Assembly (NCBI GenBank): GCA_963733675.1
Contig: CAVTET010000001.1
Coordinates: 1,024,001 to 1,088,000, forward strand
Length of the DNA: 64,000 nucleotides
Origin: an uncultured Methanosarcinaceae archaeon
GTDB lineage: Archaea; Halobacteriota; Methanosarcinia; Methanosarcinales; Methanosarcinaceae
Direction of reading: 5' to 3'
Position numbers and translations under genes: made by a program
Shown here: positions 649 to 49,798 of the stretch, piece by piece
Position numbering within the stretch: position 1 is the first letter of the stretch
Layout of the letters: each line of letters starts with the position of its first letter
Notes under the pieces: model-generated
Database searches by the model: none
The model's input: only the letters and a program-made list of their open reading frames with translations
What the model was told of the DNA's origin: nothing

Positions 649-1314
649 CCCCAGAAAATAATAACAACAATTGGGGAAAACAAAGTATATATAAAGTGTA
701 AATAACGTTTAAATGCTTTTATTAATCCTACGCAAAAATACTCGAAAAAAGTCTACTATCAATTGGTCGTAAAAGTAAATATGAGACTTTTAATTTGTTT
801 TTTAGGACTAAATCGACTTCTTTTTATGACCATATAATTCTAAATAGATCCAGCTTTCATTAAACATAGTTTCTGTACTAAAATCTCTGAATTTTCAAGC
901 TCCATCCAGAATAAGAAAACATTGAAGATCTGTTACTAATGGAGCACTGGAACTTCTAGAACATTTGGAGCTCCTGGAACACTTAGAACTAATTAGCCTA
1001 AACCACAATTCTAAATGGAAATATTAGAAAAATATAATTATATAGATCTGGCAGTGTACTGAAAGTTCTGTAAAATTTAATTAAACTCTATGCTATTGCT
1101 ATCAATTTATAGCTCGCAATTGTTATTAGCTTGATTTACACAGGAAGGAATCCCCACTCCATCATCTGTTATCATAATATATGAAGTTCCAATGAAAATG
1201 GAGTTATGCATGTTCACACCGTTTATGGTCTGTCGGGGCACATCGTCTATTGTCACTTCACTATCAGTTATGTGGATTTTCTTGCCTTCTGCATAAAAAA
1301 TTCCATTCACTGCA

Positions 1315-1653
1315 ATGTATCCATCTTCTGTAATTACAGGCCTTACAAGAAGAAGTAAATCTAGTAAGGATGAATTAAATCGTAGTAAAGAAGGCTACAC
1401 AGGCCAAATAAAAAGTTTGGAGGAAAAGTTAAAGGCAGCTCCGGATATCGCTGAGTTCTCACGTCTGCAGGCAAGAGCCGAAGATTTACATGATCATAAC
1501 GAGACATTAAAGAAAGAGCTTGAAAAGGCAGAGAGAGATAAAGAGGACCTTAAGACCACGTATAATAACTCCTTTCTGCAGGTTCAAACGCTCATAAATC
1601 AAAAGTCCATTGAAGCACCAGGATCTAAAAAATCTTGGTGGCAATTTTGGTAA
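1315..1653 (+). CDS. Coiled-coil protein with C-terminal KKSWWQFW (DUF536-like), probably 5'-truncated
   Basis: Heptad-rich sequence ending QKSIEAPGSKKSWWQFW. The N-terminus overlaps an unrelated minus-strand fragment (1107-1340). Confidence 0.55.
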   Translation: MYPSSVITGLTRRSKSSKDELNRSKEGYTGQIKSLEEKLKAAPDIAEFSRLQARAEDLHDHNETLKKELEKAERDKEDLKTTYNNSFLQVQTLINQKSIEAPGSKKSWWQFW

Positions 1654-1659
1654 GTCCGC

Positions 1660-2090
1660 CTAAAATTCTCCAACCATAGATAACTTATCTAGAATTTTAT
1701 TCCTAATTGCATCTGTATCTTTAACTATTATCTCAACATTTTCGTTTTTATTCTCTGAAATGACGTCCATTTTTCGGTACAAATGTCGACCAAAATCCTC
1801 CGGGAAACGTCTTTCCAGAATCCACATGCAAACCGGGCAGTTTCAGCATTGGCGGCTTTATTAAGGTGTTCAAGACATTTTTTAGCCGCATCTGCATTAC
1901 ACTTATTTATATATTTATAAAACTGATGATAATTCCCAGATTTCTCTGTCTTGCCCCTATTCATCCAGGAATTGAAAGTTTGGTAAGTTATACCAACAGC
2001 TTCGGCAGCAAGAAAATAGGAAAGTCCCAAAGCAATATTGTCACCAATTTTCTTGGTTATATTAGGCGTCATTTTAGTCGGTCTAGCCAT
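1660..2090 (-). pseudogene. Terminase small subunit-like HTH protein (one frameshift at ~1843)
   Basis: MARPTK..HTH (AAEAVGITYQTFNSW). The shifted frame continues CMWILERRFPEDFGRH...KILDKLSMVGEF* and aligns end to end with 42221..42652. Confidence 0.65.
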
Positions 2091-2575
2091 GGTTACACCG
2101 TTTTTCAGTTCTTTGTAATAATATATGCGGGTCTTATCTTAAATATTTACTTAGTTTGATTATGCACGAAGCCGAGTTTTGGGATATGAACTCATAAATT
2201 GAACGATTGTGGGGCAATCTCATGCCTTTTTTAGGGTAGGTAGGTTTCTACAGGACTTCACATCGAAGTCTCCAGAATGAGCTTATATTAAGCGTTTTTT
2301 GGACAAAAACTAAATCCCATAATTTTACTGCCAAAAAACCGGGGGCATCTCCGAGATATTTTTCACATACTTTTATTAATTTAAAATTATATAAATTATA
2401 TTTATTAAAATAGTCACGTAGCTTTTTAGATCGGAATATGAATTTTTATCCCATTATTATAGAATCTGTAAAAACATATTAAAATAGTATGGGGGATGTT
2501 GACCGATTTCCGTTCTTTCACAATAGGATAGAGAGAATTTATAACAAATTATTTAACAACTTGTTAGTTAAATGG

Positions 2576-2971
2576 CTAGAACTGATCTCCATGATCATCT
2601 GTTTCAATCTGCAAAAACAAAGGTTTTACTTCTGTATTACCATCTTCATCGACTATAGTGCAATCCAATTTGTACATATTAGTAGCTGGTTGATCAAGCG
2701 CAGCTGTTTGGTCTTGTAGTGTTTTTTCGCAGAACGTTAAATATCTACGGTTTCCTTCTTTATCAAGAAGTACCGGAGTATATAATAAACACGGTTTCTC
2801 AATTGATGAGTCAAAGTTTTCACTGGGTACACTTAGGACTTTCCAAGATTCTACCGTACATTCTTCCAATTTAAACGGAAGATCTTGGAGATAATCTTCT
2901 TTTAATTCAGGCGTTAATTTTAATGAAATTTTCGGATCAAACTCTTGCTTTCTGTTGTCAATAAAACTCAT
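2576..2971 (-). CDS. Hypothetical protein of element 1
   Basis: 131-aa ORF abutting 2972..3205. Confidence 0.55.
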   Translation of the reverse strand: MSFIDNRKQEFDPKISLKLTPELKEDYLQDLPFKLEECTVESWKVLSVPSENFDSSIEKPCLLYTPVLLDKEGNRRYLTFCEKTLQDQTAALDQPATNMYKLDCTIVDEDGNTEVKPLFLQIETDDHGDQF

Positions 2972-3205
2972 TTAATCACCTGCAATTTTCTGCCAACCAT
3001 AACCATCGCCTTCAATTTCTATTTTTTTTACTTTGCCTTCATTTACAAGCTTATAAAGCATGATTTTAGCAGTGGACCTGCTGCATCCTACTAAACTCAT
3101 AATAGTTGTAGCGGACTTAATACTGTCAATTGATAGAGCATTCAGTAACATATCTTCTGTAAATTGCTGTTGAAATCTTGTTTTACCACCTTTCATATTA
3201 CCCAA
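2972..3205 (-). CDS. Small winged-helix DNA-binding protein
   Basis: SATTIMSLVGCSRSTAKIMLYKLVNEGKVKK..GYGW fits a wHTH pattern. Confidence 0.6.
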   Translation of the reverse strand: MGNMKGGKTRFQQQFTEDMLLNALSIDSIKSATTIMSLVGCSRSTAKIMLYKLVNEGKVKKIEIEGDGYGWQKIAGD

Positions 3206-3649: not shown

Positions 3650-5363
3650 CTACTTCTGCCAATAATCTGAGAATTTTACATCAACTACACAAGGAATATG
3701 TTTTAAGTATTTACTTCCTGCTTTTTCCATTATTGTTTTTACAAAAGTACAGACTTCCTCAGCATTCTCCTCTTTACACTCAAATACGAGTTCATCATGC
3801 ACGATGTTAATGAATTTTACACCTAAAGGCTCGAATTTAGCCTGGGTTTGGGGAAGAGCTTCCTTAATCATATCTGCGCATAGTGATTGAATAGGTAGAT
3901 TCGTTGCTTCCCTACCTGCTGCACTCTCGTCTTTATCGCCATCAATAATTAATAGCCTACCCTGCAGCATTTCGTAATTCTCTATTCTGTATGCCTTCCT
4001 GACTTATTTTGTCCATATACCTACTTAGAGCAGGATAAGCTCCCTTAAAAGTACGAATGTACTCCTTAGCCTGATCTTCTGTCAGTTCAATTCCAGCATC
4101 TGTTTTTAACTTTTTCATCAAGCTTTTAGCGGACATCCCATAAAGTAAACCAAAATTAATTGTTTTTGCTATACTGCGTTCTTTGTCAGTTTTTTGAATG
4201 CTATCAAATGGCTTGTTAAAGATCTTAGAAGCAGTGAGGGTATGAATATCCACATTAGCAGCATAAGCTTCTATAAAAGCAAGCTCATCTGCTTTGTCTC
4301 CTAATATCCTAAGCTCTATTTGGGAGTAGTCAAAAGCTATTATTTTATTTCCCGACTCAGCTGTAAATATAGTTCTCCATTTGTTGTATTTAATAGGCTG
4401 TTGCTGAAGATTAGGATATTTACAACTGAACCGCCCTGATTTTGTGCCATACTGAAAAAAGTTAGCATGAATCCTACCTGTTGTTCTTGCTCTGTATGCT
4501 GGTAATTTCGAACAAAAGCTTGTAATTAGATGTTTTACTAGCTTGTATTCTTGATATTTATCTATCAGAGGATCTTCGTATTTTGCAAGCTCTTCAACAT
4601 TTATCGATGTAACAGGAATATCTTCTTTATTAAATTGTTTTACCATCTCCTTAGGAGAGTTAAGATTTATCTTGCTAGTTCTAAAATCTTCGTATAAAGA
4701 ATATCTTATATCCTTCTCTAATCCCACAAGTTCTGATGTTATCTCTTCCAATTTCTCCGGGTCATAGTGCATACCTGAAAGTTCAAGCCAGATGGTTGCA
4801 GGAATCACTTTCATTTCTGTATCTATGACAGACTCAAGCCTAAGTTCTTTTATTTTCTCTTGTTGCTTCTCCATAATGATAGGAAGGTACTCAAGGTCTT
4901 TCTTGCAGTATTCAATCTGTTCAGTTGTAAGCTCTTCCCCAAGCCTAAATGAGCACTGAAGCCTTTTACTCATCCTTTCCCTATCACAATAACGATGAAC
5001 TAAATCCTTTAATCGCATACCTTTTTTATCTTTATCTTCTTGCGAACGTAAACGATCTGCAGGGGCAGGACCACCTTTTATAGTAAGCTCAGCTATCATA
5101 GTATCATAAACAGAATGGATATTAACCCCATATTGCTGTTTCAGCATAGCACAGTCAAATTTTAGATTATGGCCTACTATAGTAAACCTATCAAAGAGCT
5201 CTTTGTAATCAGATAAATCATTAAGTTCTTCACCTTTGATAACGTGAAACTCGCCTGATTCGGTTAAAAACTGAACTGTAACTATCTCATCTCTATGATA
5301 ATCCGGCTTCTTACTCTTTGGATCAAACCGCATAGTTTCAATATCAAGAAAAAGGAAGCTCAT
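3650..5363 (-). pseudogene. Family A DNA polymerase with 3'-5' exonuclease and no 5' nuclease; one frameshift at ~3960
   Basis: ExoI DIET, ExoII GHNLKFD, ExoIII YCKKD; GRFSCKYPNLQQ; motif A DYSQIELR, motif B RSIAKTINFGLLYG. Motif C VHDELVFE lies in ORF 3650..3970. Confidence 0.9.
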
Positions 5364-5611: not shown

Positions 5612-5914
5612 GTTGGCAGGCTTCCGAGCAGTTTCCGATGAAAAACCTGCCAGTGTCTTTGGCTGTGTTTTTATATTTATTCCAGATGAAATCTACCCCT
5701 GCTCTTGTTCATGATTTTGAGCAAGCTGGCAGGCTGGCAGGTTAGTAGAGCTTATCTTTTTATCTGTATATTGATATGGAGAAGAGATTTCTTTCTCATC
5801 TTCTTTTTCATTTTCTGTGGTAGAACTACAATAGGGGTTTTCAACCTGGCAGCCTGCCAGTCCTTCTACAGCATTCGAAAATTCCTGGCAGGCTTTTTCT
5901 GTCGTGTCTGCCAA
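5592..5914. repeat. Iteron-like cluster (CTGGCAGG, both orientations, ~10 copies); candidate origin
   Basis: Copies at 5592, 5605, 5613, 5646(rc), 5726, 5734, 5846, 5853(rc), 5885 and 5908(rc). Confidence 0.65.
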
Positions 5915-8679
5915 TTTTAACTGTTTATCTGTTTGATTGTTGATCTGTTTCTCGAATTCAAGCTTGGAAGCATATATATCATATTTATTAATTTGTATAT
6001 CCTCCCAATAAGCTACTTTCTGTTTTGATTCATTATCATAAAGTCTAACATCAATAAAACCTATTTTTTTCATTTTTAGTCCAAATGTAGAATAAGGTAG
6101 CTTTTTTATTTGGTTATATTCAGCCCAGTCCAAATAAACTTTGTACACTTCTTTCTTTTCAGTAAGCTTAGCAGGAGAGTGATCTACACCGGCTTCACAA
6201 AAAGCACTTACAGGGGAGCTGTTTTTAACATAAATATCCTCAACTTGCTCTATATCTTTATCATAAGAGAATTGCATTTCAGCAAGTACATTTTTTAAAT
6301 GAGGTAAAACTAAGTTGAGAAATCCTGATTTTCCTCTTCAGTTATCAGTTTATTGAAAAGAGATTTATCATCATTTTTTCCTTCAACGAATTTTTTAGGG
6401 AAATGAATTAATATCCATCTACGAAAAAATGAATAGCCTCCTTCTTTTATCTCGGGTATTTTGTTGGCAGAAAACATTAACCTAGCTGTATTGTAAAAAC
6501 TAAACGAATCTTTATACTTTTTTCACCTACGATTCTGTCTCCACCAACTAAAGTTTTGAACATATCACTATAATAAACAGCTTGATCTTTCAAATCAGGA
6601 TAAATATTTAATAATTTTCCATCAAGATTGGATACTGCAAATTTATCAGTTTCAAGTTTTTGAAGACTCATACCACTTACGTTCTTGTCACCAATCCAAT
6701 TAGTTATAAATTTTAACCAAATGGATTTCCCATTAGCTCCATCCCCAAAGAGCATGAGAGCCTTTTGGATTTTAGTATCTGGAATTAAACTGTATCCAGC
6801 AAACTCTAGTAATACCTTAGCATCTTGTTTAGAAATTTCAATATCTACTAAGAATTTATTAATATTAGGACACTTTGCGGTAGGATCATAAATTACTGGA
6901 ATTTGTCGTATAGAATAAACGTCAGGTCTATGCTTTTCTAAATTTCCTGTCTGTAGATTGAATAGTCCATTTTTCAAATTAATTAAATGCTCTGAGCCTT
7001 TGTCAATTAAATCTCGTGATTTGTTTGTATACACTTTTATGAATTTTATAACTTCAATAACAAAATCATCGTCACCTACAGGAATATGTTCAGGTAAATC
7101 TTCCGTTAACAACTCTTCCCATTTTTCCTTAAATGTTTTTGAATACTGTTCTCTAATTACTTGATCAATAATGTTGTCAGCACTTTCTTGGGTGTAAACT
7201 CCATCTTGATAAAGATATAATTCTTTTGTCTCACTTAACGTTATTATAGAATGTTTTTCCATTATGATTTTTCCAATTACGTCAAAATGCACCTCATTTT
7301 TAATTTAAAAGTATCAGCTTTTGGATCTCAGAAACGGAAAGCTCATTAATATTTTTCGAGTTTTTAGTTACTGTTGTTCTTGCCCATGATTTTGCGGATT
7401 TCTTTAACGTAAATATATCATCAGCATTAAGTTTAAAAATTAATTTTAATTTATTGATGTAAGCATTACGATATAATGGATCCAGTTTAAGTAAATGTTC
7501 TTTAATGAACTTTTCAACAGAATTTAAGTCAATTACTTTATCATCAGTTACAATATAATTTCTTAAAACAAAAGAAAAAAAATCTTCAGCTTCTGTCACC
7601 AAATTATTGAAATCAGCAACTTTTTTCTCTTTCATATACTCTGCGATATCTATTTTACTAAGATTTTCTCAAGGTAGAGTAATAATTTTCACAGACAAAC
7701 TAGTATCAAAAAGAATTTGCCCAACTTCTCTAGCTCCATTTTGTCCTGCTCTATTCTCATCATTATCAAAACAAACGTAAATTTTAGATTTTGTTCTCAA
7801 AATATCTATTAAGTGGGCTTTGTTTTCGTCTGTTGTATTAGTAGATCCTAGGGAGATACAAGGAAATCCAAACTGATTAAGAACTATACAATCTGCCAGA
7901 CCTTCAGCAATAAAGCAAACATCTGCATTCTTTATTCTGTCTTCCCCAAAAAATCCTTTTTTGTTGATAAATTCAGAAATCTGCTCATTTTTAGTTTCAG
8001 ATCTAATTCGCAGATATTTGTATTTTGGTCCGTTATCATAATCTGGAGCATCAGGAGTTACTCTACCTGCAATATACTGAATTGTACCATTGCTAGTATA
8101 AAGAAAAATGATTCTACCTCTATAAAATTCCCCTCCCATGTTTCCGGTATCAGTAGTGTAAACTAGCCCAGCTTTGATCAAGTTTTTAGGATCCATGCCT
8201 TCCAGATTTCGCTCAGTGGAAGCATATCCTAGGTTCCAATCATCCACTGACTCCTTGGTAATCCCCCATTGATTGAAAATGAAACTGTACTGCTCATTAG
8301 TTAAATTTCCATGGTAGATATCTGCAGCTGTAGTAAGAGTGTTATAAACGTCTTCCTTTTCTGCAAGCTTGTTGGCTTGCTCATCAGAGAATGGCTCAAG
8401 TTGAATTCCAGAAATTTCTGTAGCTTTTTCAAGTGCTTGCCGTTTAGTAAGTCCTCTTTCTATATATTGAATAAAATCAAGAATACCTCCACCAACATGG
8501 TTTTTGTGACAGAACCAGGTATTTGTATTAAGTCGAACATGTAGACTTTTACCTATCTGCCCCACAGGTGGGATTGATCCATAATACAGATCCCCTTCTC
8601 TGGTTAGGTTAATTCCATAAGATCTGATTATTTTGACTATATCCATTTGAGCGAAAATAGAATTAGAAGACATTTTCAA
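5693..8679 (-). pseudogene. DnaG/TOPRIM primase plus D5/P4-type SF3 helicase, probably one fusion gene, now broken into 4-5 pieces
   Basis: 7669..8679 has RGRIIF, PKYKY, AEGLADC and CFDND. An in-frame TGA at 7669 is followed by IDIAEY. 6477..7292 has D5_N (INLKNGLFNL) and Walker A GDGANGKS. FSANKIP..FFRRWI lies in 6300-6480, and a C-terminal wHTH in 5693..6277. Confidence 0.85.
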
Positions 8680-8827
8680 ACTTCCGGGAGTAAAATTAGG
8701 CTTGAGACGAACAAAGCCCTCATAAAATTCTCATTTTCTCGAGCAGCACAGCATTCAGAACAGTATTTAATATATAACAGTTCAAGGGCTGTTTTTTGCA
8801 GGGTTTAATATACATCCAAAACGACAT

Positions 8828-9970: not shown

Positions 9971-10014
9971 TGTATACGTGTATGCATGTATGCATGTGTG
10001 CATACACGTATACA
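9971..10014. promoter_or_regulatory. Perfect 16-bp inverted repeat within an alternating purine-pyrimidine tract; candidate operator
   Basis: TGTATACGTGTATGCA-N12-TGCATACACGTATACA, ~100 bp upstream of the RHH gene. Confidence 0.55.
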
Positions 10015-10062
10015 CATATACAGTTTAATAAACAAGTGAAAAAAAATTATAAAATTGAAAAG

Positions 10063-11217
10063 TTAACCATTGCTGCTTTTAACTGCATTTATAAGGGCAT
10101 TTAAAATTGCAGGATCAGCTTTTTGAAGTTGCAAAACAAGTTCTGAGATTTCGGTTTTTTCGGTTTCGATGGTTTTGCTAGATTCTGTCGTTAACGGTAG
10201 ACCACATCTAAAACAAAATTGTGCTTTTTTGTCTATAATCTCCTTACATCGGGGACATTTTAAAACTCTGGGCTTCTCTTCTTCTTCTTCAGGTAATTTG
10301 AGACCTGAAGCTTCAAGCATTGCTGCATTAATGTCGTTCGCTGATAGATGAATGTAAATATTAGCCATCTGAGAGTTAGCTTTCCATCCTAAAACAGCTT
10401 TAAGCTTTTGTTCACTCTTCAATTTCTTAGCCAAATCTGTAGCTCTTGCATGTCTAAATGAATGCGGATTGATTCTCTTCTTGATTCCTGCTGCCTTTCC
10501 TATGATCGCAATTTGCTGGTATAAACTTGATCGAGATATCAAATTATAAGGCTCTCGAAATGAACAAAAAATCGGAGCATCAGGGTCTTCTTTCCTAGGA
10601 TGAATTTCCAGCCATTGGTGAAGGTAAGAAGACGCAAAAATCAATCTCACAGGTCTAGCGCCTGTTTTCCCTTCACGAAGCCACAAAAGGCATCCATATT
10701 CGTCGAACTTTGCATCTGCAATGGTTGTACTTAATAATTCTCCCTTCCTTGCTCCAGAGTCTGTTAAACAAGCTATTAATGCTTTATCCCTCGCTGTGGG
10801 AGCATGGCGGATTAAACAATCAATTTCTTCATCTGTTAAAAGTTGATCTGGTGTTATACTGCTATGTTGTGTGTTTTTCGTTTTGATGCATCCTGCGAGC
10901 TTTGGGTTAATTTTTCCTATGAATACCCTGATGACAATCTTGTGAAGCTTGATCGATGAATTTTTCAGGTTCTCAATAGTGTCCAAATAGTCGTTAAAGT
11001 CTTCTTCGGTAATTTTTTCATATGGTTTTTCTAAACACTTTGAGAAGCGTATTAGTATTATCAGATGATTAATTATCGTCCTTGGTTTCCTTTCTTCATC
11101 CTGTAACCTTTTGATGTGCTTTTTGAGCGTTTTGAAATTCTCCGGTAATATTTCGGCCTCTACAATTTTTAGTCGATTGTTCCAGTAAGCTAAGTCAAGA
11201 ATATCTTGTTGAAACAT
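10063..11217 (-). CDS. Tyrosine recombinase/integrase with C-terminal Zn ribbon
   Basis: SGARKGE, GKTG, HSFRH, LGW, IYIH; CPRC..CFRCG. ORF is intact. Confidence 0.93.
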   Translation of the reverse strand: MFQQDILDLAYWNNRLKIVEAEILPENFKTLKKHIKRLQDEERKPRTIINHLIILIRFSKCLEKPYEKITEEDFNDYLDTIENLKNSSIKLHKIVIRVFIGKINPKLAGCIKTKNTQHSSITPDQLLTDEEIDCLIRHAPTARDKALIACLTDSGARKGELLSTTIADAKFDEYGCLLWLREGKTGARPVRLIFASSYLHQWLEIHPRKEDPDAPIFCSFREPYNLISRSSLYQQIAIIGKAAGIKKRINPHSFRHARATDLAKKLKSEQKLKAVLGWKANSQMANIYIHLSANDINAAMLEASGLKLPEEEEEKPRVLKCPRCKEIIDKKAQFCFRCGLPLTTESSKTIETEKTEISELVLQLQKADPAILNALINAVKSSNG

Positions 11218-11475
11218 GATTCTAATAACGCACCTTCCATATAAAGTAGTTTCCTTATTTTAAGTAAACTACCATTACTAAACTGCAAAATTTAATGGCT
11301 TAAGAGCTTGCTTATACATAGTTTTTGTGAGAAAAGTTTTGCATTGGGAATTCAATAACTTATGAAACGCCTGAGTCGCTATATTTCTGCTAATATGAGT
11401 ATCATATTTAGAATACAAATTGCATATTGAAAAAATATATAAAGTAAGCGCGCTAAAAAGTTTGAAGTATAAACT

Positions 11476-12213
11476 ATGGGTAAACAAATATTTAACAAAA
11501 CAAAAAAAATACTAGGCATGTTAATGGTAACCTTTTTAGTAACATCAGTGACAGCCATGGCAGTAAATGCTTACGATGGTATGTATGACCACGATAATGT
11601 TGTGCAAATAACTCAGCTTGAACAGATAAACACATTTCTACATAAGGGACCGGTGTTTGTGGAGCTGAAAGCTAAGTCCTGTAGACCATGCCAGCAAATG
11701 AAGCCTATTTTGGAAAAACTTGCGGCAAAATACCACGGAAAAGCTACAATCGCGTCTATTGATATATATCAGAATCCGGAACTTGTGAAATATTTTGGCG
11801 GCTACAACCTTCCTGATGCTTTTGTGATTGTTGGTACAAAAAGCGGAAAATACGTTTACATAGATGACGATGGAAACAATACTGTGGATAGATCCCAAGC
11901 CAAGATTATTGGATTAAACGCTGAAAATGAAAACAGGTTTGAAAAAATTATTGATCGTGCTCTTATTCAGCAAGATAACAATAAATATATGCTAACTGGA
12001 CAACACAAAAACGGAAAACCCTCCCGCGAACAACAAAACGGTGAAAACTATTCCGGCGAACAATACCGAAGAGGACAATACACAGGTGGAGAAAACCAAG
12101 GGAGACAATTCCCAGGTGGACTATTCCCAGGTGAACAATATCTCAGCGGACTCCCAGGTGAACAATATCTCAGCGGACTCCCAGGTGGACAATTCCCAGA
12201 TGAACAATTCTAA
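11476..12213 (+). CDS. Secreted thioredoxin-family protein with Gly/Gln repeat tail
   Basis: Signal peptide ending AMAVNA; CRPC active site; tail of GxQ(F/Y)(P/L) repeats, including a 27-bp tandem duplication near 12126-12190. Confidence 0.8.
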   Translation: MGKQIFNKTKKILGMLMVTFLVTSVTAMAVNAYDGMYDHDNVVQITQLEQINTFLHKGPVFVELKAKSCRPCQQMKPILEKLAAKYHGKATIASIDIYQNPELVKYFGGYNLPDAFVIVGTKSGKYVYIDDDGNNTVDRSQAKIIGLNAENENRFEKIIDRALIQQDNNKYMLTGQHKNGKPSREQQNGENYSGEQYRRGQYTGGENQGRQFPGGLFPGEQYLSGLPGEQYLSGLPGGQFPDEQF

Positions 12214-39906: not shown

Positions 39907-40062
39907 ATGTTAAAAATGTTAAAACAATCATCTAGTGGAATTAAAAAGGTACTGGCTGTTTTGCTGTTAGTCCTTTTTGTAGTATCGTTGACATCTGTGG
40001 CAGCTAGTGCTCGAGAAGAACGACATGGTGACCACGGACGCCATGGTGGCCACGGGCATTAA
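39907..40062 (+). CDS. Small secreted His/Gly-rich peptide (51 aa), probably truncated by a nonsense codon
   Basis: MLKMLKQSSSGIKKVLAVLLLVLFVVSLTSVAASA-REERHGDHGRHGGHGH*. The same frame continues QPGSYGYG...GCYQDPYTGLITCP. Confidence 0.65.
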   Translation: MLKMLKQSSSGIKKVLAVLLLVLFVVSLTSVAASAREERHGDHGRHGGHGH

Positions 40063-41086
40063 CAACCAGGTAGTTATGGTTATGGAACATATCCCTACTA
40101 TAGCAGTAGTTCTGGATGCTACCAGGATCCATATACTGGTTTAATAACTTGCCCCACATACGGTTCCTTATATTTGAACATGAAAATATACCACCTGACC
40201 ACATGGAAATATCATCTCAATGAAAACAAAAACTGCAAAAGATAAAACTGTAAATAAAGTACATGGAGTAACTTTACTAGAATATGAATGATAGCAATCC
40301 CTGTATGCAAATTGGAATAATTTCTTATCTGCATTTGAAGTCAAGCTTGCTCATTTATATTTATAAAAATGGATTTAATTTTAAGGCATGCTTTTACTTG
40401 AAAGATTGCTATTACTCTTGATTCTTAAGATTCTGCGCTCTCTGATCTCGTATGGTTATTATATGTGTGTAAGAGAAACTATACATCAGAGGGTTCCTTG
40501 ACGATTTTTCACTTTCATACACATAAACACACTAAGACATTTTATTTTGGGATCGATGCCATAGTGCATTTGTGTATTCTGACATATTACTTGAACATGA
40601 AATAATATCTAATTTTCACATATTAGTTAAATAGTAATTACAGTAACTAAATAGACTGAAATTTACATAGTCCTAATCCTGTAGACCATGATGGCAACCT
40701 TTTGGGATGAAGTTTATATTCCACTAATATGCAGAATATAAAATATAATCATCGTAAAATATATTAAAAATATATTTCTTAGTGAAAGCAAAAGTTGAAG
40801 AAATTTATTAAAAATTTATTAATTGAGACTAGGGTATTGAAAATTTGAGTTTTTGATCCATTTTGTTCATATTTCTAATTTTGTTTAGAGTACTATATAA
40901 TTATTTTTTCCATTACATTTTTTATTTATGCTTGTGATTCAGTTTAATTAGTTTCAAGTGTTCAAAGAGCTCCATATGTTCTATAGGTTACATAAGCTCT
41001 ATGCGTCATAGATCCATAATAATTTTCCTTTATCCTGAAAATTTAGTTCTGTATCAACTACCTAGGATGAAATTATTATCTTAGAA

Positions 41087-41938
41087 GGTTCCGTTGCAAA
41101 AATCCTTTCTAATGATACAATAGAATAAAAAGAAAATCAAAGATAGTAACATGCTATCTAATTCCTTTAAATGGAAGCGTTTTGAAGGAAAAATTATCCT
41201 ATTGAATGTAAGATGGTACTTAAAATATTCATTGAGCTATAGAAATTTTAAAAAAATGATGATAGAAAGAGGAATTCAAGTTGATCACAGTACTGTAATG
41301 AGATGGGTGCATCAATATTCCCCTGAAATAGAAAAGAAAATAAGAAGACATTTAAGACTAACAAACTATTCGTGAAAGTTGATGAAACCTATATCAAAGT
41401 AAAAGGTAAATGGAAATATTTTTACCGAGCAGTCGACTCAAATGGAGAAACAATCGATTTCATGTAAAGTGCAAAACGAAATAGGATAGCAGCGAAGAGA
41501 TTTTTTAAGAAAGCTTTGAGTTCTAATCATAACCAAATTCCAAGAGTAATAACAGTTGATAAGAATCCAGCTTATCCACCTGCTATAGATAAACTGAAAA
41601 ATAATAAAATATTACCTAAAAACGTAGGCATTTGACAAATAAAGTATTTGAATAACATTATAGAACAAGATCATAGATCTATAAAACGAATCGTTAATCC
41701 AATGTTAGGATTTCAGTCTTTTCGATCTGCTAATAAGACTTTAAAAGGAATTGAAGCTATGAATATGATCAAAAAAGGACAAGTAAATGATCTAAATTAC
41801 TCTGTTTTTAATGAAGTCAAATGTATTAATCAATTATTTGGTATAGTTTTATAATGTTAGTACATTTTCCTTGAATATTTTGATTTTTATTCATTACTTA
41901 TAGATTTACATATTTTTTTGAATTTTTGCAACGGAACC
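41087..41938 (+). mobile_element. IS6-family element, inactivated (copy 2, inverted relative to copy 1)
   Basis: Both IRs GGTTCCGTTGCAAAAA present; same frameshift and TAA as copy 1 plus an extra TGA; no target duplication. Confidence 0.93.
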
Positions 41939-42220
41939 CTAAATGGTGTATATCCATTTTGATTTTACATTAAAAAGAAAAACATATATACTAATATAGT
42001 TATCAAAATATCGATTATTAAATAGTTATTATGATTTTTACTATTTTTTGCTCGAATAAGGTCAATTTATAAAATAAAACTGTTTTTGGGAAAAAGGAGC
42101 CGCTCTGGAAGTTTTGGTAATTCCAGCTACAATTAGATGACATAATAAAAATAAGCAGGAAAGAACAATTTATTAAAAATAATTCCGGTTAGAGTAAAAA
42201 TATTAACCAGTTAAAGGCTC

Positions 42221-42652
42221 TTAACTTTCTCTACCTAAAGCAAACTTTTCTAGAATTTGTGCCCTAATGCCATCTGCATCATTGATTGCTATATCAACAA
42301 ATACATTCTGATTATCTGAAACAACATTCATTTTACGATATTGTCGTCTTGCGAAGTCTTCCGGGAAACGTCTCTCCAAAATCCGCATGTAAACTTGGCA
42401 ATTTCCAGCATCAGCTGCATCAGTAAGACGTTTAATGCATCCTTTTGCGGCATCTGCATCACGTTTCTGAATATGTTTATAGAACTGAAAATATTTCCCA
42501 GATTTTTCTGTTTTCCCCTTCTTCATCCAAAGATTGAATGTCTTATATGTTATGCCCATAAATTCGGAAGCAAGAGAGTATGTGAGTCCCAAAGCAACAT
42601 TATAGCCGATTCTCTGTTGTAGTTCAGGTGTCAATTTACAAGGTCTCGCCAT
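42221..42652 (-). CDS. Terminase small subunit-like HTH protein
   Basis: MARPCKLTPE..GITYKTFNLWMKKG...ILERRFPEDFARR. This pattern resembles phage genes that precede TerL; paralog of 1660..2090. Confidence 0.65.
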   Translation of the reverse strand: MARPCKLTPELQQRIGYNVALGLTYSLASEFMGITYKTFNLWMKKGKTEKSGKYFQFYKHIQKRDADAAKGCIKRLTDAADAGNCQVYMRILERRFPEDFARRQYRKMNVVSDNQNVFVDIAINDADGIRAQILEKFALGRES

Positions 42653-43383
42653 GGCTGTACCGTTTTTTATTTTGAATAATTAGTATAAGTGGATTTTATA
42701 TTTAAAATTTAGTTAGTTTCGTTATGTATGCGGTCGGGGTTTATACACATCAAATCTAAGCCATTTTTTGACTAGGCCAATATTTTACTAAGGACGGTAA
42801 GTTAAAGTTCCACCAGTAAGCTTAGAGTAAGTCGGTTTCTGACCACATTAAATCCCCATGTTCCTAATGTCATAGCACGGTAACTACCTTTAAGACATTT
42901 TTCATATATTTTTATCACTTTTAATTAATATAAATTAAGTTATTAATTATGTAAATAAACTGATGAACTGTAACTTACGATAAATATAGAACAGGAAATA
43001 AATGATTGTGGGGCGATTTAAGACATTTTCCTGAGTAGGTAAGGGGTGTATTTACAATAGATTAATTATAAACATGTTGTAGGGGCTGAGATTAAGTCCA
43101 GTAACTGGCAACCTTTCTGAGATTTAGACCGATATTATTCCTTTTTTGTGAGTCTACGACGTCCTGTAGCAGCTTCATCTGAACTTGGCAGGATCACCTA
43201 CCATGGTATTATTTCCCAGCTTCGTCTTCGATACTTCAAGACCTTTAGATCCATGAGGAATTAATGGTTTTTTTCCTGAAGTCATGCTTGAAATGTGAAA
43301 ACTAGGGGCCTATAAGGATCCGGTTCCCCAGAATCACTGATATCAATATCAATAAAAAGGAAAGATAATATTTTGAGTTCCTA

Positions 43384-43770
43384 CTATTCCCAAGCTTCAG
43401 TCATTCCTTCAGGCGCCATCATTCGGTTATTGGTATGTGTTCTTAAAGTGGGGTACTCTTCATAACAATTGTCACATAAAACAATTACAGTGGGGCTTTT
43501 ACCCCGTTGTCTTATAGTTTTTATCATCCCACGTTCTTCTAACTCATCCAATGCTTTAGGAAAAGCCCAATCAGGGATAGGGAGAAATGAGTTTATACCC
43601 TTCAGGGTGACTATTAAGTCTTTAGATTTCTTCACCCCTTTTAAATGTTAAATGTACATAGCAACTCTATATGTATGTCCCACTGAATTGGAAGGTAACT
43701 TTATAATCCATTCTGAAGGCATTTGAGATATGAAAGATCCCTTTATTTTATCTTTAGGATTCACCAGCAT
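43384..43770 (-). pseudogene. Winged-helix protein of the PolA module (internal stop and frameshift)
   Basis: ATG43770 after a GGGAG RBS; GSFISQMPSEWI..RVAMYI*HLKG joins 43384..43635 (ALDELEERGMIKTIRQRGKSPTV). Confidence 0.55.
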
Positions 43771-43870
43771 TATCTTACTCCCATTAGATATTACTTTTAA
43801 ATATTAAGTAGAAATAAAGAAGATATATTAAAGAAATATAAGTAGTAAAATCGATCCCGGAAGGCTTATG

Positions 43871-43982
43871 AATTTAGCTGTAAAGCTAATTAATTTTAGC
43901 TACAGGGCGAAATATATTTTGCTGTACAGCTAATTAATATGGCTCTACAGCTAAATTGGGATTAGGTTCTACAGCTAAATTG
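43871..43982. repeat. Iteron-like cluster TACAGCTAA(A/T)T
   Basis: Reverse copy 43871-43882; forward copies 43925, 43944-43958 and 43968-43982 (TCTACAGCTAAATTG twice); AT-rich tract adjacent. Confidence 0.6.
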
Positions 43983-44024
43983 AAAAGTCTGTCCAGGATC
44001 TTTCAGCCTCATTTATGGTGGGTT

Positions 44025-45793
44025 TTACTCTTGTTTTATCTCCATGAGTATCCGCGTAATAGGCTCCCAAGTTTCGACACCTTTCTCATCTATATACCTG
44101 TCAGGATAGCGGACAATATCGACATCTGTTTTCAATCTGTTACCTGCACCCAAAACGATCTCGGATGCATCACACATCAGCTTTCTTGCTATCTCTATCT
44201 CTTTGTCTGCCATCTTTCCGTCGCACTCAATCATCACTGCATCGTGAACTGGTGCAACAATTTTAATTTTATTCTCCGAAAGAAGGATGCATGCCACTCT
44301 AAGAATTTCAGCCCCAGTGGCTTGAATTGGAAAATTTTGGACAGTCAACATTTCCTTATTGCTGGAGCCTGAAACAATCATTTTCCATTTGTAGCAGGTT
44401 TCGATCCTTTTCATCAAACAGGCTTGAGTCCAGGTCATATCTACCCACCGCCAATAATTTTTGAAAATTCTTTTATGATGACTCAACAGTTCTTTTGCAT
44501 AAGGTGTAGGCTTGCCAATTTTAAACCCAAGTGATTCTGCACCCAGGCCATATTGAACGCCGAGTACACAAGATTTAAAAAGCTGTCTCACACTACCATG
44601 CGTTTCTTTTGTAGCATCTGCGGGGATTGAACCTGCTAATTTTGCAAAAGCTAGATATGGAGCCCCACTCTTATATGCCTCAATCATATTGGGGTCATTA
44701 GAAAGAACAGCTGCGATAAAGAATTCTTGTTGTGCATAATCAATATCTGCAAGTACTTTTCCCTCAGTCGGTGTTATTAGACTTCTCAGACTAGCAGGAA
44801 GTCAAAACATAAACCTAACTCTTAATTCTTCTCTATTCTTCTTCTCCTCGTCATCCTTAGGGGCATTTCTACCAGTCTTAGTTCAGAATGGGGAGATTAA
44901 GGTTCGACTTCTGCCATCTGAACCAGCCATAATAGACTTAAAGTTTAGCCCACCGATAAGAGCTTTTAATTCCTTCAAAGACCCTATTTCAGGATGGATT
45001 TCTGCCATTGCCTTGAAAGTTTCCTTATCGTTTTTGGCAGACCTGTATCAGTTCTCGGCCACATCCAATTATTGACTTGAATTGATCTCTCAAGATTATG
45101 TATCTTAAAACTAGTTCCTTCGTAAATTCCAAATTTGTCAATATTTTTGATCAACTTTAATTTTATTTTTTCCCATTTTTTTTGTAACTCATTAAGTAGA
45201 TAGGTATCAATTGGCACACCATTATATTCGATTTCTGCCACAGATTTCATATACTCCCCCCGATAGAGAGAAGTTGGTATATCAAAATCAGGAACCGTAA
45301 TCATCCGTTTGAATAACTCTACTGTTTCAAGCACTTCAGATTCACAATAACGCATAATGTATTCTTGATCTTCTTCAGAGTAAGGAGCGCCAGCTAAAAT
45401 ACGATCTCTTGCAGCATCTTTCTCCACTTTGCTAATAGTATCTATGCCAAAAGCTTTACACGCATCCAGCAGGTTTGCACCTCTTCTTTCATAAGAATGA
45501 TTAGTAAAGCATCTGTACTCTACGAACGTATCAATCACATTGAATGGCAAGGGCCAGTTTAAGACCAGGTGACACCCACACTCTGCTGAGCTCATGTGAG
45601 CAACAAATAAGTCATTTTCATTTATTGAATATGGTGGATGACGATTGTTTTCTCCAAAAAGCCACAGTCTTTTAGTTTCTCCAGAATTAATCTCATGGGA
45701 AACAACACAAACAGGTATTGGATGTTCGCTAGGTTTTGCGATGAATTCAAAGTCTATCACGTAAATGCGATCAAAAAATGGTAGGGGGAGCAT
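44025..45793 (-). pseudogene. Family A DNA polymerase (different subgroup from element 1), disrupted
   Basis: ExoI IDFEF, YCESE; DGRSR..TKTGRNAP; motif A DIDYAQQEF (~44725-44750); motif B RQLFKSCVLGVQYG; NFPIQ; motif C VHDA. Frameshifts and a stop in 44690-45030. Confidence 0.88.
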
Positions 45794-46362
45794 TAAAGCT
45801 CGCCTCTGAGTCTCTTTAAAACAGGGTGATTATAGTCATCTATGAACCGATCCTTGAAAGCTATCTCAATAGCCTTGATTATATTCTGCGGTTCCTCAGG
45901 CCATTCAGGTTCCGGAAGCTTACTAACTGCTAAAACGATGTCGTAAGCGCCGATTGAGTCATTCCTTTGCAACTTTACCCATTGAGTTTCCCCTTTAGTG
46001 TATGCGATCCGTCGGGTACGGTTGAACTCATTGTCCTTACCTTCCACGTCAGGTTGGGCTATTTCTGAGAGAAATATTTCACCTGACCCGTAGATAATTC
46101 CAACGTAAATTCTCACAAGCTTTAGCTTTTTTGTCTCGATCACCTTAGGATACAGATCTGGATTGAGGAGGTATTTTCCTTCCCCCTCACTGTTGCCGCC
46201 TAAATCCAAGAGATAAGTGTCGAATTTCCATTTTGGCCCTGGCCTGATCCTGAAAAATTTCACACGAGTGTTGGGCTTTCTAAGAGGAATTGAAGTTAAC
46301 ATGTGCTTTATAAGGATGGGGGTAACTTCGGTAACTCGGAGAGTCTCAAAATTGAAGGGCAT
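45793..46362 (-). CDS. Hypothetical protein coupled to PolA (possible SSB or accessory factor)
   Basis: 189 aa, beta-rich (RKP..FFRIRP, EPEWP, AFKDRFID..HPVLKRLRG); its stop overlaps the PolA start. Confidence 0.65.
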   Translation of the reverse strand: MPFNFETLRVTEVTPILIKHMLTSIPLRKPNTRVKFFRIRPGPKWKFDTYLLDLGGNSEGEGKYLLNPDLYPKVIETKKLKLVRIYVGIIYGSGEIFLSEIAQPDVEGKDNEFNRTRRIAYTKGETQWVKLQRNDSIGAYDIVLAVSKLPEPEWPEEPQNIIKAIEIAFKDRFIDDYNHPVLKRLRGEL

Positions 46363-46590
46363 CTAAAAAACCTCCTTTGTTGAATTGAAGATTTTTAAAA
46401 GACACCTCAACCCGCACGTAGATAAGTTGAAGAAAGAACATATATTAAGGATACTGCCTATATTAATCATAGATATCACTCCTGATTTGTTTAGGAATTG
46501 GTACCACATGAGCGGTTTTGCAAGCGTCGGAAGCCTCCAAGCAAACAGGCGCGTGCAAATCACCAAAAATATCAAATTTTGTTTTTTGTA

Positions 46591-46782
46591 TCAAAGCAAT
46601 CCTCTCTCCTGTGTTACCGCTTTGAGAGTTGTTTCTCCTCGTTCAACAGATTTTTTTATTTGTTGGAGACGATGCTGGGCCATTTGTTCAATTTTGATCA
46701 TTGTTTGGAACGCTTTGGACATATGTTGATCCAATTCGTTGTTTATGGATAAATTTTTATCATATACTGAGACGGTATTCAT
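46591..46782 (-). CDS. Small hypothetical coiled-coil protein
   Basis: ATGA overlap with the upstream AbrB-like gene. Confidence 0.5.
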   Translation of the reverse strand: MNTVSVYDKNLSINNELDQHMSKAFQTMIKIEQMAQHRLQQIKKSVERGETTLKAVTQERGLL

Positions 46783-46985
46783 TGGTATTCACCACTGTGG
46801 AAATGGTCAATAGCTGCCGTATTTTGTAGCGTATCGCCAGCTATGAGTTTCAGTCTATTTTTGCTGTTCATATCTACCATCAAAGTTTTCGCTTCTAAAT
46901 CCATTGATCTCATCCACTGCATCGGAAGTGAAATCAAATAACTTCCATCTTGTTTGACAACAGTTCTGTTTCTAGATTTAAACAT
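46779..46985 (-). CDS. AbrB/MazE/SpoVT-like DNA-binding protein
   Basis: RTVVKQDGSYLISLPMQW; RBS GAGGT. Confidence 0.75.
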   Translation of the reverse strand: MFKSRNRTVVKQDGSYLISLPMQWMRSMDLEAKTLMVDMNSKNRLKLIAGDTLQNTAAIDHFHSGEYQ

Positions 46986-47052
46986 ATTTACCTCGCAATT
47001 AATGTTGTAATGCAGATGAGGAGATGTAACTGATTACATACAGTTATATTTT

Positions 47053-47108
47053 GTAGGTAATAAAAATCAAAATACCTATATATAGGTCAATTTTTACAAT
47101 TTACCTAC
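47053..47108. promoter_or_regulatory. Symmetric operator array in the divergent promoter region
   Basis: GTAGGTAA(47053) ... ACCTATATATAGGT(47074-47087) ... TTACCTAC(47101); all share one dyad axis. Confidence 0.6.
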
Positions 47109-47163
47109 TATTATAGGCCAATCACCAATACGTCTTAATAAAGGTTTGAGCTACCTATAAAAT

Positions 47164-48180
47164 ATGAAAACAGAAACTAACAAAGAATTAATTTTAGGTA
47201 GTTTATTCGAATCCCCTAAAACAACTGGACAATTAGCACGTGGACTAAACTATGTTAATAAAAAGGGCACCGCCGGTTATAGTACAATTAATAATGATTT
47301 GAAAAAACTTATAGAAAAAGGATATATTGAAGGTAAAATAGTGAAAATTAAGGGAAAACGTGGACAGCCTCCAACATTATATTCATTTGTTTTCAATATT
47401 CCGAATTTAATTGGCATACTGGCAGAGTATCCACGTTTAATGCCAAAAATGCAAAAAAACGCTTCAATTTCCGAAAATATATTATCTCATTATTCAGACA
47501 TAATTTATGGTTCGAATGACAGTGAATATTGTAACACATTTGGGAAAAATGGAAATGAAAGCTGGTCTTTAGCATCTAGGGAATTATTTATCCACGCCGT
47601 ATATTCAACTTCTGATTCACTTTCTGTTTCACTTAAGAAGGATTGGGAAGAAAATTCAGGAGCTGAACTTTTTGAAAAAACAAAAAAAGATTTTGAGATA
47701 AAATTACAATTGTCTCCTGAATTTTTCAGACTTTTCCTGACCAATGATAAAAATAAATTAATGACGGATATTAAACAACTTGCTAAATTGTCAGAAACTA
47801 ACATAATATTCTTAACGGATTGGGACTATAATCATCACCCAGATAAATTGCTATCAATATTTGGAACAACTTTATCTATCAATATAGCGTTCGAAGCATG
47901 CGTTTCCATGGATATAATAAAAGGCCAATCCAATAAAGAAGCCATAAAATACTTCACACAAAAAAAGAACGAAGTGTCAGATGCAGAAATTGCACATTTA
48001 AGAAATTATTATATGCATACTAAATTTGCACCTAAGTTTCTTAAAGGGAAAAAATTAATTCCCATTCAAAATCTCAAACTTGAAAAGATAGAAAAAGAAT
48101 TCGAAGACCATGGAGGAGATTACATAGTTTATTATACTCCAGTAAACCAGGGATATAAGAATAACAGGACAATCTACTAA
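47164..48180 (+). CDS. wHTH-containing regulator (candidate master repressor)
   Basis: N-terminal PKTTGQLARGL..YSTINNDLKKLIEKGYIE..RGQPPTLY; divergent from the AbrB operon. Confidence 0.7.
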   Translation: MKTETNKELILGSLFESPKTTGQLARGLNYVNKKGTAGYSTINNDLKKLIEKGYIEGKIVKIKGKRGQPPTLYSFVFNIPNLIGILAEYPRLMPKMQKNASISENILSHYSDIIYGSNDSEYCNTFGKNGNESWSLASRELFIHAVYSTSDSLSVSLKKDWEENSGAELFEKTKKDFEIKLQLSPEFFRLFLTNDKNKLMTDIKQLAKLSETNIIFLTDWDYNHHPDKLLSIFGTTLSINIAFEACVSMDIIKGQSNKEAIKYFTQKKNEVSDAEIAHLRNYYMHTKFAPKFLKGKKLIPIQNLKLEKIEKEFEDHGGDYIVYYTPVNQGYKNNRTIY

Positions 48181-48260
48181 AATTAAAATTTTGACAGTAT
48201 AATTTTGTCTACTTTCGTTTTTAGTTAGGATACTCAAACCCTATATAACAGATTTATTTT

Positions 48261-49427
48261 TTAAGTGATTTTAGCTAGCAACTCATTAAGTCTTGCTTCA
48301 ACTAACTCGTTAATTTTTGATTTTAGTAATTCATTAAGACTATCATCAACAGGTTTAGCTTTTTCTTCTAAATCCATGGCAGTTTTTAGCGTCAAAACAG
48401 CACCGCACTTATAACAGAAAAGATTATTCGGCGTGTTTATGTTCTTACATCTTGGGCAAACATTAGTTTTTGGTTTATTTTCATCTTCTTTAATTTCAAT
48501 ACCATTTGCTCTCAAAATAGCCTGATCCACATCTCTGCCAGACAAGTGGACGTAAATACTAGGCATGTTAGAACCCTGAACCCATCCAAAATGCATATTC
48601 ATTTGAGCTTCTGTCAAATGATTTGCCATGTAAGTCGCCCTTGAATGCCTGAAAAGATGAATATGAACTCTTTTTTTAATTCCAGCTTCTTCTGCCACCC
48701 TTTGCAACTGCATTCTTATCGCGTCATATTGCATGCCTTCAATGCCCTTTTTCCTGCGTGAAAGATTGAACCATAAAGGAGCTTCTAAATTATCTTTTTC
48801 AGGATGCTCTTCTAACCAGTTCATCAAATATGAGACGCTCCAGACAGCTCTCACCCTTCTTGGGCCAGTTTTACCATTGACGATTATCACTGCCCCATAC
48901 TCATCAAATTTGATATGTTTAATTTTTAGCGTGCCTACTTCTCCAATTCGTGCACCAATATCCCATAATAAGCCTATCATAGCTTTATCACGAGTATTTG
49001 GTGCGGCATTTATCATTTTAATGATTTCTTCTTCTGTTAGCAAATCTTCAGGCAGCTTCTTATCTTTATTTATAATGTTAGTAGTAAACCATTTCGTGAG
49101 TTCAGACTCGTCTCCTTTCGACAACCATCTATAAAACTTCTTCAGTGTAATTTTATATTCGCGCCTACTTGCTTCACTTTGCGTTTTTTTGTTGATTAAG
49201 ATTAAAAGATATTCAATATCCTTTTTAGTGGCTTTGTCAAAGTCCTTATTCATCAAAATTGCAATACTTTTTAGCGTGGCAACATATTTCAAAATCCGTT
49301 GATCTGATAAACCTTCAATATAACAGCTATGAACAAAATCTTTAATTAACCTTATATTTTCTTTTGACAGTCCGGAGCCATCTAAAGTATCTATTCTCGC
49401 TTGTACGTTTATCTTGTAAAGTTCCAT
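48261..49427 (-). CDS. Tyrosine recombinase/integrase with C-terminal Zn ribbon
   Basis: GARIGE, GKTG, HLFRHSRAT, FGW, IYVH; CPRC..CYKCG. Intact; paralog of 10063..11217. Confidence 0.94.
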   Translation of the reverse strand: MELYKINVQARIDTLDGSGLSKENIRLIKDFVHSCYIEGLSDQRILKYVATLKSIAILMNKDFDKATKKDIEYLLILINKKTQSEASRREYKITLKKFYRWLSKGDESELTKWFTTNIINKDKKLPEDLLTEEEIIKMINAAPNTRDKAMIGLLWDIGARIGEVGTLKIKHIKFDEYGAVIIVNGKTGPRRVRAVWSVSYLMNWLEEHPEKDNLEAPLWFNLSRRKKGIEGMQYDAIRMQLQRVAEEAGIKKRVHIHLFRHSRATYMANHLTEAQMNMHFGWVQGSNMPSIYVHLSGRDVDQAILRANGIEIKEDENKPKTNVCPRCKNINTPNNLFCYKCGAVLTLKTAMDLEEKAKPVDDSLNELLKSKINELVEARLNELLAKIT

Positions 49428-49798
49428 TTCTCGCCTGACTAAATGTAGGGCCCATTAGTATTTAAAAGTAATTAAGTGCATCGAACATTAAGTTCTGATC
49501 AGTAAAAGAACATCTTTTGAGCAAAAGGGATCTATTCAGAAACACGAGATTCAGCTCAAAAAGAGTTCAGAGGAAGAGTTTATGCAGGAATTAAAAAAAT
49601 ATTCAAGACAGGGTAAGATCTTGGGTCAGCGTCCGAAGACTACATAGATCATCATTTTGCAAGCAATATGATAAATTTAGTTTATATATCCTTTATGATA
49701 TAATTGAAATTTTTCATAAACCAACAATTATCGGCAACATTATCAGAAAAATTTTATATACTTAATAAATTAATCAGTATCTAGCAGTAATTTATGAG

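Follow-up and report, generated by a model that had tools for sequence, protein, structure and literature searches.

Do archaea harbour chromosomal islands that replicate on their own and travel in the capsids of tailed viruses, as the phage-inducible chromosomal islands (PICIs) of bacteria do? This question is raised by a 64,000-nucleotide stretch from the genome of an uncultured Methanosarcinaceae archaeon of peat soil (hereafter the window; C1:1024001-1088000, on the first contig of a 3.92-Mb assembly in 15 contigs, with 35.7% G+C and 92% completeness). The window holds two islands on the minus strand, element 1 at about 1.3-11.3 kb and element 2 at about 42.05-49.5 kb. Each has a tyrosine integrase at one end, a family A DNA polymerase (PolA) in its interior and, at the other end, a gene (terS) resembling those for the small terminase subunit (TerS) of head-tailed viruses. 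The original prediction, made from the letters of the window, took the two islands for archaeal virus satellites that replicate with PolA and redirect the packaging of a helper virus through their own TerS.

Our analysis places both islands in a large family of 7-10 kb integrative, TerS-bearing elements in Methanosarcina, whose existence we regard as certain. The family carries its own replicases, from which we infer that its members are self-replicating. Helper-dependent packaging, and with it the life of a virus satellite, is the best reading of their gene content, and we give it an even chance of being right. According to this reading, the element would sit integrated in the chromosome, would excise and copy itself with its own replicase, and its TerS would recruit the large terminase subunit (TerL) of an infecting tailed virus to the element DNA, which would then be packed in helper capsids. 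We hold a fuller proposal somewhat more tentatively, at a little under even: that these elements are the first integrase-plus-TerS satellite family of archaeal head-tailed viruses, with a bloom to 30-50 copies in each genome of one soil and peat clade, with freely exchangeable replicases, among them family A polymerases and a 1248-aa primase-helicase-exonuclease-polymerase fusion, and with a packaging end that arose from terS-terL elements by loss of terL.

The last gene of the islands resembles a small terminase gene

The terS gene of element 2 (42221..42652, minus strand) is intact, encodes 143 amino acids (aa) and belongs to an Sf6-like small terminase family. Its counterpart in element 1 (1675..2090, minus strand) shares 62% identity with it over 82 residues and is frameshifted. 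The homologous terS genes predicted for both islands are indeed there, though only one is intact in the assembly. The element 1 open reading frame (ORF) at 1728-2090 (120 aa) fits the family to about residue 82 and the remainder lies in another frame, at 1675-1842; in the assembled sequence the frame is apparently lost through one missing base.

The window TerS matches the family phrog_4102, 'terminase small subunit', with an expectation value (E) of 3.5e-20 over residues 1-124. With a profile built from 97 members of the family, the Sf6 gp1 TerS structures 4dyc and 3hef are matched nearly full length (E 0.002, query positions 2-120), and the Pfam family Sf6_terminase (PF20901) is matched by 31 of the 97 members, the window protein itself being unmatched. 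An AlphaFold model built from the 97-sequence alignment reached a predicted local distance difference test score (pLDDT) of 88.5, as opposed to only 50.7 with a 10-sequence alignment. Its top Foldseek match among PDB structures is Sf6 TerS with a probability of 0.91; this structural match is weak (E 0.28, template modelling score 0.38-0.41).

The proteins of this type (3hef, 4dyc, PF20901, phrog_4102) and, judging from its model, probably the island protein have an N-terminal helix-turn-helix (HTH) followed by long helices; a further likeness is the position before TerL that viral homologues occupy. The difference lies in the low identity to Sf6 gp1, about 17% in the structural alignment. The family is also large, with 7916 cluster representatives at E<=0.001 and 1369 at E<=1e-10. 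The TerS-like call is thus borne out by phrog_4102, by the Sf6 profile match and by the TerS position before TerL in viruses, and membership in a non-packaging HTH family is ruled out. We conclude that, as judged from sequence comparison, assignment of the last gene to the small terminase subunits of Sf6 type is well supported.

The gene is under purifying selection: among the 13 intact copies, the ratio of nonsynonymous to synonymous substitution rates (dN/dS) has a median of 0.20 and a maximum of 0.45, dS being defined for 71 of the 78 pairs. Moreover, terS always lies at the element end opposite the integrase. TerS takes the same position in bacterial satellites.

A large family with several replicases

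By tblastn and profile search, 37 terS loci were located in the genome of the window, with 13 distinct intact copies and many broken ones. A survey of the genomes of 59 Methanosarcina species gave 12-51 terS matches in 6 of them, 1-3 weaker matches in 14 and none in 39. The copies differ by 25-45% in protein sequence and, in the terS tree, those from elements form one tight group with 57-77% identity. The relatives that we compared are metagenome-assembled genomes named Methanosarcina sp. or uncultured Methanosarcinaceae archaeon, retrieved via protein pattern scans, and their names agree with an assignment to Methanosarcina. The 150 related loci mentioned below comprise 70 from 5 related genomes, together with the 80 best out of 274 found in metagenomes.

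Clustering of the ORFs around terS distinguishes several replicase sets before it: PolA; PolA with a DnaG primase and a D5 helicase; a PrimPol-D5 fusion; UvrD with a 440-aa protein; and a DUF927 helicase. In terms of gene content, the replication module is interchangeable between elements. The proposed replication by PolA is upheld in that PolA modules are present in both islands, but both are frame-broken, and PolA is only one of several alternative replicases.

Intact elements of 7-10 kb, with the order integrase, opposite-strand ORF, replicase, small ORFs and terS, were found in the related genomes (loci L050, L057, L064, L065, L081 and L085). In addition, three near-complete congeneric genomes have single-copy islands (L272, L273 and L274). 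Two of these, L272 and L273, lie after pyrF and contain an integrase, a 400-aa ORF, a helicase and terS; the third contains a PrimPol-D5 gene and terS.

Relatives next to a large terminase

Viral homologues of the island TerS occupy the place of a small terminase gene. On the IMG/VR contigs L029 and L030 a homologue stands directly before TerL, with a portal gene following, and L029 also encodes a major head protein. In a congeneric genome (L107), the gene for a 161-aa homologue with 36% identity extends into the first part of that for a 459-aa TerL. At the 77 IMG/VR loci with a related TerL, a strong family member (E<=1e-30) lies at or just before TerL in 9 cases and a match of any strength in 14. 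Of 50,697 GenBank phage records only one gave a match, that of PhiF3, an isolated Methanobacterium virus, whose ORF8 lies 14 bp before the annotated TerL, portal, protease and capsid genes.

Other TerL-bearing relatives share more with the islands than terS. The IMG/VR contig L194 has terS, terL and then the convergent coiled-coil gene that directly trails terS in the elements. The IMG/VR record L196, 21,371 bp long with direct terminal repeats, contains UvrD, D5-like helicase pieces, a weak integrase, TerL and a coiled-coil ORF; small but complete in appearance, it may represent a relative of the elements, with TerL, in its free state. UvrD is common to elements and TerL-bearing IMG/VR records (6e-101 and 1e-266). 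The gene content of L194, L196 and L197 therefore indicates that the same replicase cassettes come with TerL-bearing or TerS-only ends. On this comparison, the TerS-only end looks like a derivative that has lost terL. Pfam portal and capsid models gave no match in the TerL-bearing IMG/VR records; the same models also missed the virus-like L239, so nothing is concluded from this result.

In the islands themselves, the predicted lack of structural and transfer genes was confirmed among the ORFs scanned in the window (not every small ORF), which gave no Pfam or PHROG match to capsid, portal, TerL, tail or conjugation families, the sensitivity of these structural-gene negatives being bounded by the models used. 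A hidden Markov model (HMM) built from 12 TerLs and applied to 20,814 six-frame ORFs, drawn from the 150 related loci (1.82 Mb) and from all of the 3.92-Mb genome, detected no TerL next to any of the roughly 190 close terS copies. The sole match was a 96-aa fragment at C4:295871-296158 that does not adjoin terS. Among the 84 terS copies that have 2.5 kb or more of sequence downstream, no same-strand ORF of at least 300 aa begins nearer than 205 bp. Of the 29 such larger ORFs we scanned ten; nine proved to be cellular-type genes, unrelated to one another, and the tenth matched nothing. Close homologues without TerL or capsid genes had been expected, and this holds for the 150 related loci and the window's own genome; distant relatives, at 36-37% TerS identity, do carry TerL.

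Separately, three stretches of 50-66 aa (C1:722937-723134, C1:241030-241188 and C4:295994-296149) resemble approximately residues 350-430 of the Methanosarcina-type TerL. These could be relics of such a gene or else a small domain that has nothing to do with it.

Alternative explanations

Several observations weigh against a satellite life of these elements. The first concern the protein: the transposase HTH family HTH_Tnp_1 is matched by 24 of the 97 family members, and because of this match some sources use the label 'transposase', as JGI does for some members. Others concern the helper virus, for which the window's own genome (92% complete) offers no match to Terminase_6N, Phage_capsid or phrog_2; Terminase_6N is present in 11 of the 59 congeners. 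A copy number of 30-50 per genome far exceeds what is known of bacterial satellites. We also took a census of integrases and replicases at terS loci with at least 9 kb upstream, with a query set limited to the families met in this analysis: neither an integrase nor a replicase was recognised at 17 of 25 loci of the window's genome, at 25 of 48 loci of relatives and, on metagenome contigs, at 12 of 20.

The nearest TerL-linked terS genes (L194, L107 and L195) have 36-37% identity to the element copies. No portal-sized ORF follows TerL in L195 and L196, and the nearest TerL-linked relatives may themselves be non-viral. In L197, the UvrD and 440-aa pair matches own-genome elements at 1e-266 and 6e-206, yet its end is TerL. 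Compared with intact relatives, element 1 is damaged in terS, PolA and the helicase, and the PolA of element 2 changes frame near 45023-45041, at an A5 run. Finally, direct repeats around 9 elements reach only 11-12 nt, which is chance level for att sites, and contigs of 4 metagenome runs (40000-51500) contain no joint skipping element 2, although this last result is no evidence either way.

Some of these points would fit integrative plasmid-like ('cryptic integrated') elements in which the TerS-like protein now serves another purpose, as a DNA-binding regulator, a recombination directionality factor or a partition protein, with no helper and no packaging. We consider this explanation unlikely, but it deserves to be taken seriously: the N-terminal HTH is common to transposase and resolvase families, no helper was identified in the genome, many solo terS copies adjoin cellular genes and the 21.4-kb relative with terminal repeats seems, from its size, to fall short of a complete tailed virus. 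On the other hand, the TerS match is nearly full length and goes beyond the HTH, the family occupies the TerS position in real viruses, and terS keeps its place opposite the integrase, as in bacterial satellites.

A different explanation is that the islands are remnants of proviruses, or of elements with both TerS and TerL, that have lost TerL and the structural genes and are now immobile and decaying. The frameshifts in both window copies and the many broken terS copies are in line with this, as are the TerL genes of relatives at 36-37% TerS identity. The order terS-terL-coiled-coil in L194, as opposed to terS-coiled-coil in the elements, fits a past loss of terL, and L197 combines the UvrD and 440-aa pair with a TerL end. 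However, the same TerL-less layout recurs at scores of chromosomal sites in at least six species-level genomes and also exists as intact single-copy islands, terS is under purifying selection, and independent decay would not repeatedly halt at the same point. We therefore regard plain remnants as distinctly improbable. That the copy number is due to a transposon, with the terS-like gene encoding its DNA-binding subunit, is very improbable indeed: the JGI names, the 37 loci in the own genome and the richness of this genome in insertion-sequence-like repeats would suit it, but no transposase-type catalytic gene consistently adjoins terS, the accompanying recombinase is a tyrosine integrase 8-10 kb away, and the 25-45% protein divergence among terS copies is unlike a recent burst.

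No CRISPR array came to light when the assembly was scanned, crudely, for exact 22-mers, which makes spacer-based host-virus linking impossible; the candidates at C1:1600-2500 and C4:63171-63510 are tandem repeats.

Comparison with known satellites

The satellite reading takes the layout and TerS mechanism of the SaPI-type PICIs as its model. The Methanosarcina elements resemble PICIs in the integrase at one end with an opposite-strand gene beside it, in their own replication module with an iteron-like cluster, in TerS at the far end, in the lack of structural genes and in their size of about 7-10 kb. They differ in residing in an archaeon and in their replicases, which are PolA, DnaG, D5, PrimPol and UvrD and not the SaPI primase-rep. 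They are also without recognisable repressor, capsid-size or packaging-interference genes, no att repeats were found, and tens of copies occur per genome.

Virus satellites shape gene transfer and virus resistance in bacteria. If the satellite reading is true, PICI-type parasitism extends to archaeal tailed viruses, in a main methane producer of peat and soil, and the PolA genes of Methanosarcinales-type archaea acquire a mobile-element context. Near-complete genomes of other Methanosarcina species, each with a single intact island, would allow the interplay of archaeal satellite and helper, including induction and packaging, to be studied at the bench. The family, with its tens of loci in each genome of one clade, is also of concern when such genomes are annotated and binned.

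Among other satellites, the virion-encapsidated integrative mobile elements (VEIMEs) are described as marine elements with tyrosine integrases and primase/helicases; some members of 'module 6' have small terminases and DNA polymerase genes, and their TerS is closest to the TerS of co-occurring phages (PMC9618062). VEIMEs belong to bacteria and were recovered from virus particles, so that packaging was seen, whereas the Methanosarcina elements are archaeal and known from genome sequences.

For archaea, a 2025 preprint states that only pSSVi and pSSVx were known as satellites before, and adds the SRCEs of spindle-shaped haloarchaeal viruses (10.1101/2025.02.15.638363); a 2026 preprint proposes NMV2S as a small circular satellite of an Asgard tailed virus (10.64898/2026.08.12.739948). 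All of these are presented there as archaeal plasmid-like replicons thought to hijack helper particles, as the present elements would. According to the same texts, pSSVx/pSSVi and the SRCEs differ in exploiting spindle-shaped viruses and in carrying capsid or ATPase genes, and the accessible descriptions of pSSVx/pSSVi, the SRCEs and NMV2S mention neither a TerS nor an integrase-plus-TerS island.

The presence of family A polymerases in Methanomicrobia was noted in 2023 as cluster #8, with a context 'not indicative of a prophage' and with relatives fused to primase or helicase domains (PMC10201439). The window PolAs have in common with cluster #8 their occurrence in Methanosarcinales-type archaea. 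The main-text passages covered by the literature searches contain no description of integrase-plus-TerS satellites in archaea; provirus and mobile-element lists attached to PMC13573593, PMC9796341 and PMC6563490 may already include such islands. The original prediction knew of no such family in Methanosarcina, and this agrees with what we found in print; PolA in Methanomicrobia had already been noted.

Organization of the two islands

Element 1 reads, from the integrase onward, integrase, 97-aa ORF, primase, 111-aa ORF, helicase, 83-aa ORF, PolA, 77-aa ORF, 131-aa ORF and terS. Element 2 reads integrase, 338-aa ORF on the opposite strand, three small ORFs, 189-aa ORF, PolA, 83-aa ORF and terS. 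Unless stated otherwise, all the genes given below are on the minus strand.

Both integrases are intact, have a C-terminal Zn ribbon and confirm the recombinases predicted at one end of each island; they share 33% identity. The integrase of element 1 (10063..11217, 384 aa) matches Phage_integrase at 9.3e-21 and that of element 2 (48261..49427, 388 aa) at 6e-17. In element 1 the CxxC...CxxC ribbon scores slightly below Pfam cut-offs, and homology to a second genomic copy stops at approximately 11271. Next to this integrase is a 245-aa thioredoxin-like gene (11476-12213), which may be cargo. It is multi-copy, with about 80% identity at C13:12608-13371 and C5:320415-321212, and one copy lies beside another terS element.

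The replication module of element 1 begins with a DnaG-type primase of 336 aa (CHC2 Zn ribbon and Toprim; 7669..8679). The D5-like helicase that follows (D5_N, DUF5906, Pox_D5; 5693..7292) is spread over three reading frames and aligns in these three frames to an 808-aa relative. The PolA (3650..5363) consists of a 3'-5' exonuclease (PF01612, 8e-18) and a polymerase domain (PF00476, 6.6e-55), and a frame change near 3960-3985 divides it into parts of 468 and 106 aa; it scores similarly against Klenow and against the apicoplast enzyme. The PolA of element 2 (44025..45793) is split as well and of a far more divergent type, always preceded by a 189-aa ORF, here at 45793..46362.

At locus L085, a 1248-aa ORF (L085:4174-7920) joins an NrS-1-type primase-polymerase helix bundle, a DUF3987 helicase, a 3'-5' exonuclease and PolA. 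This fusion recalls the apicoplast PREX enzyme, and its polymerase domain is seemingly cut short at the end of the ORF.

From the present assembly, both window copies are probably inactivated; the frameshifts could also be assembly indel errors. An extra base at 45029, the PolA frameshift site, is present in one contig each of the metagenome runs X1 and X3, at 90% likeness. Because these contigs may derive from paralogous copies, the frameshift is neither confirmed nor dismissed. An alternative genetic code for the split genes is ruled out, since the pieces lie in different frames. Over the whole window, coding density is low and many ORFs in and around the islands are short or broken, which reflects either many pseudogenes or assembly indel errors.

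Iteron clusters had been predicted for both islands and were confirmed in one. Element 2 has an iteron-like cluster at 43862..43990, where a TTAGCTGTA[A/C]AGCTAA-like word occurs at least five times, in both direct and inverted orientation, and which we take as a candidate replication origin. The repeat search in element 1 gave only a weak 2-copy repeat.

The palindromes predicted alongside small regulators are present in both islands. In element 1 a palindrome with 24-nt arms, 88% complementary and with the inner 16 nt perfect, lies directly 3' of the integrase stop (9971..10022). In element 2 the arms are at 47046-47059 and 47152-47165. The three small ORFs of element 2 (70, 63 and 68 aa; 46363..46985), which match no family, are candidate regulators by position. 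Beside the integrase, a 338-aa ORF on the plus strand (47164..48180), also without a family match, takes the place of the 400-aa ORF of other elements. Opposite-strand ORFs of 338-413 aa stand where the PICI layout would have a master repressor that a helper protein relieves, and match no family.

A winged-HTH gene had been expected in both islands. The 77-aa ORF of element 1 (2972..3205) is HTH-like by weak matches (DIP2311-like_C, 2.6e-4; TrmB, 0.079). In element 2, a conserved 83-aa ORF of unknown function (43384..43635) lies between PolA and terS. Between the HTH-like ORF and terS, many elements have a conserved 131-aa ORF, in element 1 at 2576..2971.

The usual partner directly 3' of terS is convergent with it. 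At element 1, of which it may be a part, it is a 112-aa coiled-coil ORF on the plus strand (1315..1653) that ends in ...KKSWWQFW; in element 2, the conserved tail 3' of terS (42050..42220) holds a degenerate remnant of the 3' end of this gene. That 3' end is conserved at the DNA level 3' of 13/13 intact terS copies, and the ORF is intact in 4 of 14 copies examined. The C-terminus of the protein reads K(K/S)(P/S)WW(R/Q)FW, and the protein matches phrog_736, of unknown function, at 1.5e-4. A further copy lies at G000:C13:21290-21688.

Borders and surroundings

The interval of about 31 kb between the islands (11.3-42 kb) is ordinary chromosome with genes for SAICAR synthetase, adenine deaminase and the archaeal Nre, among others. 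These housekeeping genes rule out one large element from 0.9 to 49.5 kb and agree with the two separate islands originally proposed.

No flanking direct repeat longer than 12 nt was found around the window elements. A 34-nt pair at 860-893 and 11312-11345 was rejected as att, being only 74% alike, with its left copy opening a dispersed repeat of about 200 bp. This repeat (865-1082) occurs in some 30 or more copies of 70-83% identity, does not track terS loci and may be a miniature transposable element. There is no tRNA gene in the window or in five island loci, and tRNA targeting is therefore unsupported.

The original prediction proposed a search for Methanosarcinales genomes carrying integrase, terS and polA and for strains with an empty site; the related genomes supplied intact islands, and no clean empty site was found. 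At the island locus of genome G058, homology to G003 and G005 ends 43 bp before the integrase and thereby marks the left edge of that island, but the far flank is not syntenic.

Element 2 is bordered by two kinds of repeated DNA. An 855-bp repeat (41087-41938) abuts its conserved tail, 283 bp beyond terS; it occurs at well over a hundred genomic places with about 91-94% identity and, with a 234-aa ORF family inside, resembles an insertion sequence. On the other side, a 1.5-kb segment with an FMN reductase gene (49497-50992) starts 70 bp beyond the integrase and is duplicated at C1:706118-707608 with 90% identity.

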